DNA of 64,000 bases from Malacoraja senta (taxonomy: Eukaryota), in contig CM075991.1 in assembly GCA_038087875.1 (NCBI GenBank), positions 6,448,001 through 6,512,000 of the forward strand. Reading direction: 5' to 3'. The notes under the pieces were generated by a model that worked only from the letters and a program-made list of their open reading frames with translations, was not told where the DNA came from and searched no databases. The position numbers and the translations under genes were made by a program. Numbering within the stretch: position 1 is the stretch's first letter; the number at the start of each line of letters is the position of its first letter. Below, one piece after another: positions 11,041-60,162 of the stretch.

Positions 11041-11660
11041 GAAACATAGAAACCAGGTGCAGAAGTAGGCCATTCGGCCCTACGATATGATCATGGCTGA
11101 TCATCCAAAATCAGTACCCCGTTCCTGCTTTCTCCCCTTATCCCTTGATTCCGTTGGCCCTAAGAGCTATGTCTAAAGGCCTGCCCCACTTGGCCGTCAT
11201 TTGCGTGTAACTTACACTACATCATTTACGTGTCAAGTTGCACGACGCGCGCGTCGTGACTCGCACGTGATGCGCGCATGGTGCGCGGTGACATAGGCAG
11301 TGACGCGCGGCCGCATGCGGCGTTGCAGGATTTTGTGATGTACAAAATCTTTGCGCGCCATCTGCGTGACGCGCAAAAGACGGCCAAGTGGGACAGGCCC
11401 TTTACTCTCTCTTGAAAACATCCAGTGAATTGTTCTCCACTGCCTTCTGTGGCAGAGAATTCCACAGATTCACAACTCTCGGGATTTTTCCTGCATCTAG
11501 CCTGTCCAAATCCCTTAAGAATCTTATATGTTTCTATAAGATCCCCTCTCTTCCTAAATTCCAGTGAATATAAACCCAGTCGACCCATTCTTCATCATAT
11601 GTCAGTCCCGCCATCCCGAGAATTAACCTGGTGAACCTACGCTGCATTCCCTCAATAGCA
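11041..11660 (-). mobile_element. CR1-clade LINE 3' fragment split by a MITE
   Basis: ORF 11226..11588 begins MGRLGLYSLEFRKRGDLIETYKILKG; gaaacatagaaa tail. Confidence 0.85.
11177..11401. mobile_element. Harbinger/PIF-type MITE, CpG-rich subfamily B
   Basis: TIR aggcctgccccacttggccgtc / gacggccaagtgggacaggccct; interrupts a CR1 remnant. Confidence 0.8.
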
Positions 11661-14060: not shown

Positions 14061-14200
14061 CTTCTTCTTCTTGTGTATGGCGTGCACAGCCTAAAGTTGC
14101 AGGACAACTTGTTCTATTTGATCTTATTTGATTGTGCACGCTGGGTTGATTGCATTCATCGAAACAGGGTGGACCATGTGAAGCTTGCAATCTTCCACCC
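14061..14200 (-). mobile_element. Second copy of the HDV-ribozyme-headed retroposon, core decayed
   Basis: Flanked by (accc)aattagat direct repeats at 14049-60 and 14197-208. Minus strand GGGUGG AA GAUUGCA AGC UUCACAU GGU CCACCCU GU UUCGA UGAA UGCAAUC, ending in a (GAA)n tail. Confidence 0.85.
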
Positions 14201-40448: not shown

Positions 40449-41319
40449 GTGCGTTTGGACACAATTACCTCCTAACCTAAAGGCGAAAAGTTATATCAAT
40501 GAAACCGAGCAGGATCATGCATGCACTCAATGAATGAATAGGATCAGAAAGATTTGAAGCAGATTGTGGTTTTAATCTTCAGGTTTGAGGCTAGATTTGA
40601 AAGTGGCATTATCTAATTTTGAGAATCATTGGGAATGATTATATTATATTATATTAATCATTGGTATTATAGATCATAGCTATTAGTGACATAAAATACT
40701 TAATTATTAATCAACAACTTGAGTTGGTATTTTTGTCGTTACATTGCTCCACACAGCACACTGGATTAAAGTAGACAGAATTGATCAAAATATCAATAAT
40801 GTTATTAAACAATTGTATCCATGCATGGTATTATCTGATTTGATTGGTTCGAATGCAAAACCGAGCTTTTCACTTTACCTCGCTACATGTGACAGTAATA
40901 ATCCTAAACCTCAAAAAAGTTTGTTTTAAACAAAATTGATACTGTATAATCAAACCTCCAATTAATAATAATATTGAGTATACAGAAAAATCCATTTACA
41001 GCTTTCGCTTTCACATTGAAATCCTAATTTGGAATCCAATCTCCAAACAATTTGCAACAGACAATAATATTGATTTATAAAGTTATTAGAGATGTGAATC
41101 ATCTTGCTGCTGAACACTAGGATCAAACATTCCAATGATTCCTAACATTCAAGCATCACGTTTAGCCAAAAGTTGAAGCATGATTCTCTAGTGACTGGCC
41201 ATCTATTTTTCAATATTAAAAATGCCCCTTAATAGCTTGTCATCCACTACTCCTGCTAAGAGTAGGTTGATGAGACTGTTGCTCTATTCGCCTTTAATAT
41301 CTTTCATGTTCTTAATCTA

Positions 41320-41780
41320 TTGAACAAGTTAGGTCTTTATTCTTTGGAGCGCAGAAGGTTAAGAGGGGACTTGATAGAGGTCTTTAAAATTATGAGCGGG
41401 TTAGACAGAGTGGACGTGGATAAGCTTTTCCCATTGAGAGCAGGGAAGATTCAAACAAGGGGACATGACTTGAGAATTAAGGGACAGAAGTTTAGGGGGA
41501 ACATTAGGGGGAACTTCTTTACTCAGAGAGTGGTAGCTGTGTGGAATGAGCTTCCAGTGGAAGTGGTGGAGGCAGGTTCGATGTTATCCTTTAAAAATAG
41601 ATTGGATGGGTATATGGACGGGAAAGGAATGGAGGGTTATGGTCTGAGTGCAGGTAGATGGGACTAGGGGGAAGTATTTATTTTTAATTAAAAAAAATTT
41701 AAAAAAATTAAAAAATGTTCGGCACGGACTTGAAGGGCCGAGATGGCCTGTTTCCGTGCTGTTATGGTTATATGGTTATA
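41320..41780 (+). mobile_element. CR1-clade LINE 3' fragment with open ORF2 end
   Basis: ORF 41320..41667 LGLYSLERRRLRGDLIEVFKI..NFFTQRVVAVWNELP; 3' UTR gggccgagatggcctgtttccgtgctgt resembles the HE1 tail. Confidence 0.9.
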
Positions 41781-55598: not shown

Positions 55599-55920
55599 TG
55601 TTTAAGAAGGAACTGCAGATGCTGGAAAATCGAAGGTAGACAAAAGTGCTGGAGAAACTCAGCGGGTGCGGCAGCATATATGGAGCGAAGGAAATAGGCA
55701 ACGTTTCGGGCCGAAACCCTTCTTCAGACTGATGTAGGGTAGGGGGTGTGGGGAGAAGAAAGGAGAAAGGAAGAGTAGGAGCCAGAGGGCTGAGGGAGAG
55801 TTGAGAAGGGGAGGAGACAGCAAGGGCTACCGGAAATTGGAGAAGTCAATGTTCATGCCGCTAGGGTGCAAACTACCCAAGCGGAATATGAGGTGCTGCT
55901 CCTCCAATTTCCGGTGGTGC
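55599..55920 (-). mobile_element. Penelope-like element 3' fragment: GIY-YIG endonuclease C-terminus, 3' UTR and hammerhead-bearing terminal repeat
   Basis: 55919-55827 on the minus strand translates HHRKLEEQHLIFRLGSLHPSGMNIDFSNFR*, followed by a pyrimidine tract and CUGAAGA-AGGGUUUCGGCCC-GAAACGUU. Confidence 0.85.
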
Positions 55921-55980
55921 TTTATTCTTATTCTTTAATTTGGAGTGGGGAATCCAGCGTACAGGTCATAGATTTAATAT

Positions 55981-56120
55981 CCGCTTCTTCTTGCGTATGG
56001 CGTGCACAGCCTAAAGTTGTTGGTCAACTTGTTCTATTTGATCTATTTGTTTGTGCATGCCGGGTTGATTGCATTAGTCACAACAGGGTGGACCACATGA
56101 AGGCTGCAATCTCCCACCCC
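55981..56120 (-). mobile_element. ~140-nt ribozyme-headed short retroposon (HDV-like head, 3' stem-loop, (GAA)n tail), copy with intact predicted core
   Basis: Homologous to 14061-14200. Imperfect 11-bp duplication agatttaatat (55970-80) / agacttaagat (56121-31); interrupts a CR1 remnant. Confidence 0.85.
56067..56120 (-). ncRNA. Minimal (P4-less) HDV/CPEB3-like self-cleaving ribozyme, predicted
   Basis: Minus strand reads GGGGUGG GA GAUUGCA GCC UUCAUGU GGU CCACCCU GU UGUGA CUAA UGCAAUC: P1 7 bp with G1.U wobble, P2 7 bp, P3 3 bp, L3, and C-U-A-A in J4/2. Confidence 0.8.
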
Positions 56121-57025
56121 AGACTTAAGATGAGAGGGGAAAAAAATATATTAGGGACCTGAGAAATGATATTTTCACATAGAGGATAGTGTGTGGGTGG
56201 ATGCGAGCTGCCAGAGGAAGTAGTTGAGGCAGGTATAATAACAACATTTAAAAGTAATTTGGACGGATACATCGATCGTGAAGGTCTAGAGTAACATGGG
56301 CCAAACACGAGTAAATGGGACTAGCTAGATGGTGCATCTTTGTCAGCAAGGGCGAGTTGGACCAAAGGGCCTGTTTCCATGCTGAATGACTTTATGACTC
56401 TGCAAGTAAACCACTTAGGGCATATAGATGGAAGCTTTTGCAACCGGTAGCTGGTCTGGAGCTGAGAGATGTGACCGGAAATCAGAGGCAGTTGAGGAAA
56501 AATATGTTCATGTTGCGGAAATGGGGGGATTGTCTAGCCACAAAGAGCAGTTAATGCCAGCAAGAATTACTCTTTTTAGTCTGAGTGCTGTAGGTCTTGC
56601 TGGCGAAGGGTCTAAAGAGATATGGTGCCAAGGCAGGTGGATGGTGTTAGAATAAATATCGGACATGACCTTCACCAGAGATGGAGCAGGTCCAAGGAGC
56701 TGAATCAACTCCTTATCATTTACTTTCACCATGGGGGGAAGTAATGAAGTCCGAGCCTTCCTATTGATGCTATCATCGTTTAATCGGGTCCAGAAATTCT
56801 TTTCAGGTATTCCTTTCCCATAAACTAAATCACAATGTTTTTAAGACTCTGTGTTCCAAAAAGTTTAAATCTTGAATATTTGAAAAGGATAAGCATTTTT
56901 TGTAACTTTTCAGTAAAGATGCACATGGTAAAGCTTAGGAGTAATTGCACCTCTCCAGCTTAGGGCAAGGAGGGGAAAGCATTGCATGATTGCTGATTTT
57001 TTGCATCTTTCTCCCCAATGAACAG

Positions 57026-58915: not shown

Positions 58916-59857
58916 TTGAACAATAGAACATTACAACACTGGAGGCCTTTCAGCCCATTTAGTGTGTGCCGGGTCTTTCGAAGATCAATCTATTTTGTTC
59001 CGTATCTCTGCTCCTTCCCGAATTCCCAGCAATTGTTTTCTACTTAAAGTGTTTAGAAGAACTATTAAAACGATTTATCAGCCGATGGAGACTTTCCCGA
59101 AAGTAGTCCTCAGAATACATCGGTTGGGGACTGATCCTCATTAAAAGGTTACTTCAAAAGAAAAACACTGAGTTACACGATTGCTATCAGGGGTTGGAGC
59201 ATAAAATGTCAAATATTAATGAATCTTCCTTTGAGTCTACACTCCGACACAAACTTGGTTGTGAGAGTCGGCAGATTTTCAGAACGCCTGGGATGAATTC
59301 AGTTTGCAATATTTTGTATAAAATGGAACATTTCCAACTGTACTTGTGGGATTTAGCTGTAAAATGTGCTTATGGCCATGAATTTTTGTCATGATAACTT
59401 ACGTTTTTTTTCTTTTAAACTTTGGCATCCAACACCACAATTGAGATTATAACGAGCTGACTGTCTCGTAAACCTCTTCCTTTGTTTAAAGTGATGGTGT
59501 CCAAGAATTTTGTGTGCAGCTTTCGAAGTGTTTGTTTCTTTTTATCCTAACAATGCATACCCTAAATCATATGGTATCATTCACTCATCACCTTTTGCTT
59601 ATGTATTCATACAATTTGGCTGAATGACAAGCTTTGATAATGCCCTTGTAAAAGAATCTTGGGACATATTAATTCATTTCTTAGTTGTTTGTGGTATCTT
59701 GCTCATATTTTCCTACCCAACAAATGACTGCAAATTAGTTAACTGGATACATTTGCGAAATAGGAACTGTATTAACTTCTGTTATCGTCAACACTGCAAA
59801 GGGCCCCTTTCAGCCACCTGCATCCATGCCTTGATTCATATCGTGCCTCCATACATA

Positions 59858-60162
59858 CTCTTGCCCAGAGTAGGGGAATCGAGAACCAGAGAGCATAGTT
59901 TTAAGATTAAGGGGGGAAGATTTTATAGGAATCTGAGGGGTAACCTTTTCACACAAAGGGTGGGTGTATGGAACGAGCTGCTGGAGGAGGTGGTTGAGGC
60001 AGGGACTATCGTAACGTTTAAGAAGCAATTAGACAGGTTTAGATAGATTGGATCGAACCGGTTTAGAGGGATATGGGCCAATGGGACTTGTGTAGATGAG
60101 ACATATTGGTCGGTGTAGGCAAGTTGGGACGAAGGTCTTGTTTCCATGCTATATGACTATGA
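59858..60162 (+). mobile_element. CR1-clade LINE 3' fragment (similar remnants near 32700-32915, 33228-33505, 35002-35222, 48235-48575, 55550-56400)
   Basis: End of ORF 59624..60046: LLPRVGESRTREHSFKI..NLFTQRVGVWNEL. Confidence 0.8.

Follow-up and report, generated by a model that had tools for sequence, protein, structure and literature searches.

We analysed a 64,000-nt stretch of DNA from Malacoraja senta (hereafter the window) and found that a 137-nt minus-strand repeat copy within it belongs to a family of mini elements that originated by internal deletion of a LINE, share both ends with that LINE and were inserted by target priming with 11-12 bp target duplications. The mini element is probably a SIDE (i.e. 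a bipartite non-autonomous LINE) of a Vingi-type LINE, freed by a predicted P4-less self-cleavage 5' of its first base, G1, and mobilised in trans. Under this mechanism, a copy would be transcribed passively as part of a host transcript, and its first 54 nt would fold as a nested P4-less double pseudoknot and cut the RNA just 5' of G1, with C44 and a Mg2+ bound at U20.G25 taking part; every RNA would then have the same 5' end. The LINE protein, acting in trans, would bind the LINE-derived 3' end, perhaps helped by a 10-bp stem formed between the 5'- and the 3'-derived parts, nick targets between a pyrimidine and an A, prime on the (AAG)n tail and copy through to G1.

The features of the window are as follows, element positions being obtained as 56121 minus the window coordinate:

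55984..56120, minus strand: whole mini element, 137 nt, a mutated repeat copy
56067..56120, minus strand: predicted P4-less HDV/CPEB3-like ribozyme fold, element positions 1-54; predicted cut between 56121 and 56120
56114..56120, minus strand: P1 5' strand, G1 pairing with U36 (descriptor match)
56105..56111, minus strand: P2 5' strand, preceded by a 2-nt J1/2 (descriptor match)
56092..56104, minus strand: P3 (3 bp) and L3; here A17G gives a G.U pair, and C24U is present
within 56092..56104, minus strand: L3 residues U20, U21, C22, A23, G25 and U26, with the numbering of the CPEB3 residues in the part of PMC4836649 consulted
56085..56091, minus strand: P1 3' strand (descriptor match)
56078..56084, minus strand: J1/4 (G37-U38, with a possible G37-C22 pair), then the P4 remnant of 5 nt, which is mutated at positions 40-41 in this copy
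56074..56077, minus strand: J4/2, reading CUAA in this copy and CGAA in the major subfamily; its first base, the putative catalytic C44, is 56077
56067..56073, minus strand: P2 3' strand (descriptor match)
56041..56120, minus strand: segment equivalent to nt 1-80 of the parent's 5' UTR (comparison with the LINE)
56028..56040, minus strand: 13-nt filler at the deletion junction, whose last bases lengthen the inner hairpin
55984..56027, minus strand: segment equivalent to the last 44 nt of the LINE, i.e. ORF end, short 3' UTR and (AAG)3 tail
56013-56011, minus strand: probable TAG stop of the LINE ORF, from alignment with the C-terminus of protein P0001
56052..56061, minus strand: outer stem 5' arm, LINE 5' UTR-derived (predicted fold)
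55999..56008, minus strand: outer stem 3' arm, LINE 3' UTR-derived (predicted fold)
56121..56131, minus strand: upstream copy of the target duplication, abutting G1, degenerate, 11 bp
55970..55980, minus strand: downstream copy of the target duplication, matching the upstream copy at 9/11 positions
14061..14200 (about), minus strand: second, older and more decayed family copy, flanked by a target duplication of its own; 87.6% to the first

A preliminary description of this DNA had proposed an HDV/CPEB3-like head, and all the helix strands that it named were present on the minus strand from 56120 onwards, with P4 cut down to a 5-nt remnant within 56078..56084. Measured against the reference copy L006, the window copy carries 7 differences in its 137 positions, of which four fall in the head (A17G, C24U and two in the P4 remnant). 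The family carries ACC/GGU in P3, UUCACGU in L3 and UUCGA as remnant; the GCC, UUCAUGU and UGUGA of the window copy are correct for this copy and not family-typical. The copy belongs, like L006, to a minor subfamily and keeps all 18 pairs and C44, and its four head mutations may make cleavage slower. Three extra bases separate its last AAG from the downstream target duplication, and the 13-nt filler may have arisen by local duplication. In the 3' half, folding predicted the stem enclosing an inner hairpin that had been described, with a z score of -2.4 in the window copy (-2.6, -2.4 and -1.2 in three copies); z scores of the whole element were -0.69 (window copy, 140 nt) and -0.23, the pseudoknot lying outside the folding model. 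Neither tRNA A/B boxes nor a tRNA gene were found in the element, in agreement with the preliminary description, so that it does not qualify as a tRNA-headed SINE.

The copy number of the family is at least 5,430, as given by exact matches of a 19-base tail motif in the 1.94-Gb genome, where the reversed motif had 0 matches; a first genome search had returned 2,622 candidate loci. For a sample chosen by the tail alone, the first 60 of the 5,430 tail-motif matches were taken; they all lie at the beginning of contig C1, and two pairs among them are apparent duplicates. The 5' start fell at positions 1-3 in 50 of these 60 copies (G1 in 41, G2 in 8 and G3 in 1); of the remaining ten, three have an internal deletion downstream of a head, two are pieces of the LINE 3' end and five are apparently 5'-truncated copies. 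A target duplication, usually of 11 bp, was present in 47/60. Starts at G1 were also found in 28 of 30 loci picked by the 3' half alone (top-scoring loci, partly overlapping the first search). Among score-biased loci, target duplications flanked 66/76 full-length copies vs 20/377 mismatched controls; 44 of the 66 were 11-12 bp long, 50/66 had A as first base and 53/66 were preceded by a pyrimidine. When a stricter rule was applied, the duplication abutted G1 exactly in 57/64 cases, 36/57 ending in T. An element start at T(-1) was considered and rejected, as the base before G1 belonged to the duplication in 57/64 and was not T in 21/57.

One copy (L032) was truncated at position 40 and carried a target duplication. 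Variable duplications, tail repeats and occasional 5' truncation were thus all found, as expected of target-primed insertion, and the 5' ends at G1 together with the target duplications argue for target-primed reverse transcription of an RNA starting at G1. The stacking of 5' ends foreseen in the preliminary description gave a pile-up at G1 in the copies sampled, and its placing of the element boundary at this base is upheld by the DNA ends of the tail-picked copies and by the duplications abutting G1. Its view of the element as a non-autonomous retroposon whose 5' end is the G1 of an HDV/CPEB3-like fold also stands. The target duplication that it saw at this edge in the window does abut G1, and is degenerate (9/11). 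At two further loci (G000:C2:91495600-91495629 and G000:C8:36531400-36531429), the sequence before the stem 5' arm was the reverse complement of the element 3' end, which suggests a rearrangement at the stem in both.

The head of the element looks like a putative HDV/CPEB3-like self-cleaving ribozyme without P4. A strict HDV-like descriptor, composed after the element had been seen, had its sole window match at 56120-56067 and 0 matches in 30 Markov controls of 64 kb. The match is a nested double pseudoknot (7-bp P1, P2, 3-bp P3 and 7-nt L3) with a G1.U wobble, U20.G25, a P1.1 pair C22-G37 and, in J4/2, the catalytic-type C followed by N-R-A. The same residue numbers, i.e. G1.U36, U20.G25, C22, A23, G37 and U38, are given for CPEB3 in the part of PMC4836649 consulted. 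All 18 pairs plus C44, R46 and A47 were kept in 31 of 50 unbiased heads, and in 46/93 of a biased set. Common non-CpG head variants lay at positions 8 (linker), 32 (U-A to U.G) and 45 (the variable J4/2 base), and were all structure-neutral. No double-sided changes were detected inside the family, one-sided changes at position 32 being the only ones; the family itself is young. The Rfam search, which had been put forward as a check, gave no match above cut-off: no HDV family matched at the window copy, and L006 matched RF02682 exactly over positions 1-54 with 17.5 bits (E 0.33) against a cut-off of 44. Nor did the HDV-type families RF02682 and RF00622 match at three further loci (L251, L253 and L269).

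Comparison with longer elements of the same genome showed that the mini element is made of LINE bases 1-80, 13 filler bases and the last 44 LINE bases, which include the ORF stop codon; it holds both LINE ends only and no ORF, as a bipartite non-autonomous LINE does. The LINE was reached with a search pattern excluding the head, which retrieved mostly mini copies with small indels plus a junction variant leading to the LINE. The junction-variant pattern had 90 matches, the first 30 of which comprised 22 short deletion forms, 7 running into a longer element and 1 ambiguous. The 22 belong to two more deletion forms with different junctions (13/30 and 9/30 of the loci, L111-L140), and the bipartite form therefore arose or was trimmed repeatedly. 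A nearly full LINE copy (L141) is about 3.1 kb long, frameshifted, with a single ORF, and shows the order head, 5' UTR of about 100 nt, APE endonuclease, RT and C-terminal Cys/His motif. A domain scan of four L141 frames and three full-length homologs detected endonuclease (PF14529/PF03372) and RT (PF00078) domains and no RNase H. At least 120 LINE homologs were retrieved, mostly proteins near 1,000 aa, the best of those listed being 72% identical; the named LINE homologs among the matches listed came from arthropods and a tunicate, and none of the 120 listed was a named Vingi sequence.

Vingi elements are described, in the part of PMC13708176 consulted, as compact, with a single ORF coding for an APE endonuclease then an RT, and without RNase H. 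As a single-ORF APE and RT LINE without RNase H, the parent LINE fits this description and would be of Vingi type rather than RTE, an assignment made by domain architecture rather than RT tree. A LINE of autonomous type sharing head and tail, which the preliminary description had recommended looking for, is present in the same genome, in broken copies; that the element borrows a LINE is in line with this, its make-up from the two ends of that LINE having been overlooked. Near-full-length LINE copies with both ends and short target duplications were recovered at three loci (L309-L311), the LINE 5' coding region had only 30 matches in the genome, and the longest open frame in ten further LINE regions was 387 aa. 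Every LINE copy examined was broken, which makes it likely that the mini-element family has stopped spreading, although the fold is preserved in most heads.

The ends of the LINE copies were surveyed separately. Five of 15 LINE 5' ends (the survey including L121, L133, L146, L153 and L171) started at positions 1-3 and 9/15 at positions 5-12, without the P1 5' strand, the corresponding figure for the mini elements being 50/60 at 1-3. In many LINE copies the head is joined to an inverted 3' end, as in twin-priming products; this was flagged at 8/15 distinct 5' ends (such copies include L112, L116, L133, L138, L153, L157, L158, L166 and L167), and the 10-bp complementarity of the two LINE ends may favour such inverted joining. 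At L141:3660-4510, the LINE 3' end is interrupted by about 750 bases of other sequence, after which a portion of the tail occurs three times in tandem. No LINE relatives were found in viral contigs.

The preliminary description had guessed at an RTE-clade partner, and a conventional or RTE-driven SINE whose ribozyme-like head arose by chance would have a similar appearance: RTE partners, too, would account for a microsatellite tail and for 11-12 bp duplications with A as first base (PMC6007223), and T was enriched at -12 (32/66). At -10, where the upstream T-stretch of RTE was looked for, T occurred in only 13/66. The genome does contain an RTE-like LINE family bearing DUF6451 (772 candidates, 150 scored, 20 loci read, L091-L110), which ends in (AAGT)n and is nearly devoid of a 3' UTR. 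The mini-element tail was not shared by any of these 20 loci, one of which holds an unrelated inserted mini copy; this different tail rules the family out as partner, and the RTE guess fails. Moreover, both element ends map to a non-RTE LINE, whose single ORF codes for APE and RT with neither RNase H nor a DUF6451 match, and the descriptor was silent on all controls. We regard such a SINE as very improbable, and retain the Vingi-type LINE as parent.

Heads outside this genome were surveyed at 77 metagenome loci of related LINEs, most of which lack the 5' end. The strict descriptor had no match in these 77 loci, and a relaxed version, which matched 2/17 upstream regions vs 2/17 reverse-strand controls, does not count as evidence by itself. 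An intermediate descriptor, tuned after the relaxed scan, gave 2 matches in 322 kb (L246 and L186) and 0 in 20 control sets. Each lies in sense orientation, no more than about 190 nt upstream of the ORF match. The 17 helix pairs are intact in both, with 6 double-sided changes in L246 and 9 in L186. Covariation of P1, P2 and P3, suggested earlier as a check, is thus seen across families, on two outside families, and not inside the family. Both heads keep G1, U20, C22, G25, G37 and the J4/2 C, L186 having C36; their P4 region is 23-28 nt long, vs 5 nt in the mini-element family, and they match the Rfam CPEB3 family (RF00622) below cut-off (E 0.019 and 1.7). A MAFFT alignment of the heads placed the helices out of register and was not used. 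Decayed heads of the L246 type were also observed upstream of related ORFs at six loci (L183, L195, L208, L219, L221 and L226), and L172, at about 410-490 upstream of a related LINE ORF, shows by eye a P2-like pair near that of the family and an HDV-type loop, with no clear P1.

RNA 5' ends were sought in four RNA runs compared with L006; they come from 'organism A', by species label, which may differ from the species of the window, and near-identical sequence was listed for eight organisms. In one single-cell run (X21), 1,783 reads continue past G1 into an adapter consensus (agreement 0.73), which we take to be the template-switch oligo, including its own three G beyond the four of the element. 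With this adapter as the consensus directly past G1, a subset of RNAs in this run starts at G1. Strand invasion has been described as an artefact (PMC12797766); at the G run of the element it would not be expected to leave three additional G. Depth in X21 was 3-8 times higher on the strand of the element, and poly(T) ends, which may stem from internal priming, occurred at the tail. In the bulk runs X23 and X24, 1,050 and 826 reads, respectively, cross G1 into mixed flanks (agreement 0.43 and 0.40), with both strands equal and no bias, which indicates that many copies are transcribed within host RNAs; the molecule-end table for the bulk runs was empty. Template switching favours capped and G-starting RNAs (PMC6885630), with the cap mark in only about 15% of reads (PMC6280765). 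As it takes capped and uncapped ends and favours G, the reads with the adapter at G1 fit cleavage and a start site alike.

The head could accordingly be mainly an internal promoter starting at G1, in which case the pseudoknot would shield the RNA or bind the LINE protein, with minor or absent cleavage. The 77-nt head of the sister Ingi clade (Pr77) is both a promoter and a ribozyme (in the part of PMC4035085 consulted), the adapter-at-G1 reads and the 3-8 fold strand bias of X21 suit a start site too, and many bulk reads pass G1 uncut. This reading leaves unaccounted for the preservation of the CPEB3 catalytic residues (G1.U36, U20.G25, C22-G37 and the first J4/2 C), six of which positions (G1, U20, C22, G25, G37 and the J4/2 C) are kept in L246 and L186; tRNA boxes are absent and, as a weak point, the adapter consensus has no extra G. 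We consider it unlikely. The promoter and ribozyme roles of one head do not exclude each other.

A ribozyme that was inherited and is now dead, crippled by the loss of P4, with sharp 5' ends due to the context of a master copy or to the LINE enzyme, is in our view improbable. The shortening of the P4 region from 23-28 nt in relatives to 5 nt and the frequent lack of the P1 5' strand at LINE 5' ends speak for it, as does the possibility that G37-U38 and A43-C44, which flank UUCG, pair and hide the catalytic C. Against it, phage P4-less ribozymes cleave in vitro (in the part of bioRxiv 10.1101/2023.06.13.544163 consulted), subfamily changes avoid the core and RNA ends occur at G1. Self-cleavage of the P4-less head remains our preferred reading; points that speak against it are the Rfam scores under cut-off, the lack of double-sided changes inside this young family, the bulk reads passing through G1 equally on the two strands and the mere 5/15 LINE 5' ends at positions 1-3.

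Elements of this kind are already known, i.e. R2 SIDEs, NARTc and RIME; the comparisons below refer to the parts of the cited sources that were consulted. The R2 SIDEs and R2/R1 hybrid SIDEs of Drosophila likewise combine a 5' HDV-like ribozyme with a LINE 3' end, an internal deletion and no ORF, and R2 SIDEs are released from a co-transcript and mobilised in trans, as proposed here for the mini element (PMC3414825). Whereas R2 SIDEs are rare, site-specific in 28S rDNA and headed by the R2 ribozyme (PMC3414825), the mini element is dispersed in at least 5,430 copies, has an APE-type parent and a head without P4. NARTc and RIME are likewise truncated APE-LINE derivatives with a 5' HDV-like hallmark, dispersed within host transcripts; L1Tc, however, encodes RNase H, unlike the parent of the mini element, and the NARTc/RIME head (Pr77) has 77 nt, a P4 and a demonstrated promoter (PMC4035085), whereas the mini head has 54 nt and an animal host. 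Derivatives of Vingi-1_EE, compared by description only, are also bipartite (5' plus 3'), their source being a compact single-ORF LINE of APE type that lacks RNase H (PMC5786205).

As for the head, the mammalian CPEB3 ribozyme (RF00622) shares the numbering of G1.U36, U20, U21, C22, A23, G25, U26, G37 and U38; it has a P4 hairpin and catalytic C57 and is a conserved intronic element (PMC4836649, consulted in part), where the mini head has the putative C44. The mini family has no RF00622 match, the two related LINE heads matching below cut-off. Minimal HDV-like or theta ribozymes likewise lack P4 and have C first in J4/2, and differ in occurring in gut phages, often behind tRNAs, and not in an animal retroposon; a search for minimal ribozymes found them in phages, plus 12 in bacteria, and none for human, mouse and protist genomes (bioRxiv 10.1101/2023.06.13.544163, as far as consulted). 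HDV-like ribozymes have been noted in some SINEs and in lamprey, according to the parts of PMC6765202 and PMC8256844 seen. In Kojima 2018 (PMC5786205, consulted in part), Vingi is among the clades with bipartite derivatives and not among the six with ribozymes. The literature covered, which included PMC13708176 and PMC5786205 in part, held no link between Vingi and ribozymes, and neither this family nor a Vingi parent nor a P4-less ribozyme in an animal element was reported in it; as Repbase, Dfam, Ruminski 2011, Webb 2009 and Kojima 2011 were outside its scope, prior cataloguing of the family is quite possible.

A broader claim, to which we give slightly less than even chances, would be that the head is an undescribed active 54-nt P4-less HDV-like animal ribozyme, with about 3,000 or more intact copies (31/50 intact heads applied to at least 5,430) cutting host transcripts in vivo and releasing a discrete small RNA, and that Vingi-type LINEs form a further clade with a 5' ribozyme. 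P4-less HDV-like ribozymes, so far from metagenomes and phages, would then reach an animal genome in thousands of copies missed by Rfam scoring, and Vingi-type LINEs would join the clades whose 5' ends are made by a ribozyme, in keeping with the question why few clades make bipartite elements (PMC5786205, part consulted). Sense copies in introns or UTRs could cut host RNAs. For the 54-nt putative ribozyme, a mutational series is already available in the natural variants. Work is under way to use Vingi proteins for RNA-based gene insertion, the donors carrying native UTRs on either side (PMC13708176, part consulted), and a natural 137-nt passenger may indicate how little cis sequence a Vingi-type enzyme needs. 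A further idea, improbable in our opinion, is that mammals owe their CPEB3 ribozyme to the domestication of a head from a LINE of this type; it draws on the core numbering common to both and on the listing of a Vingi trace in the human genome (PMC5753468).

Elsewhere in the window, another repeat with a GA-rich stretch adjoins the element at 55600-55940, similar sequence being present in many loci. Short open frames were also observed at 41266-41667 (plus strand), 59624-60046 (plus strand) and 11226-11591 (minus strand), which presumably resemble the C-terminal end of CR1-type LINE proteins.
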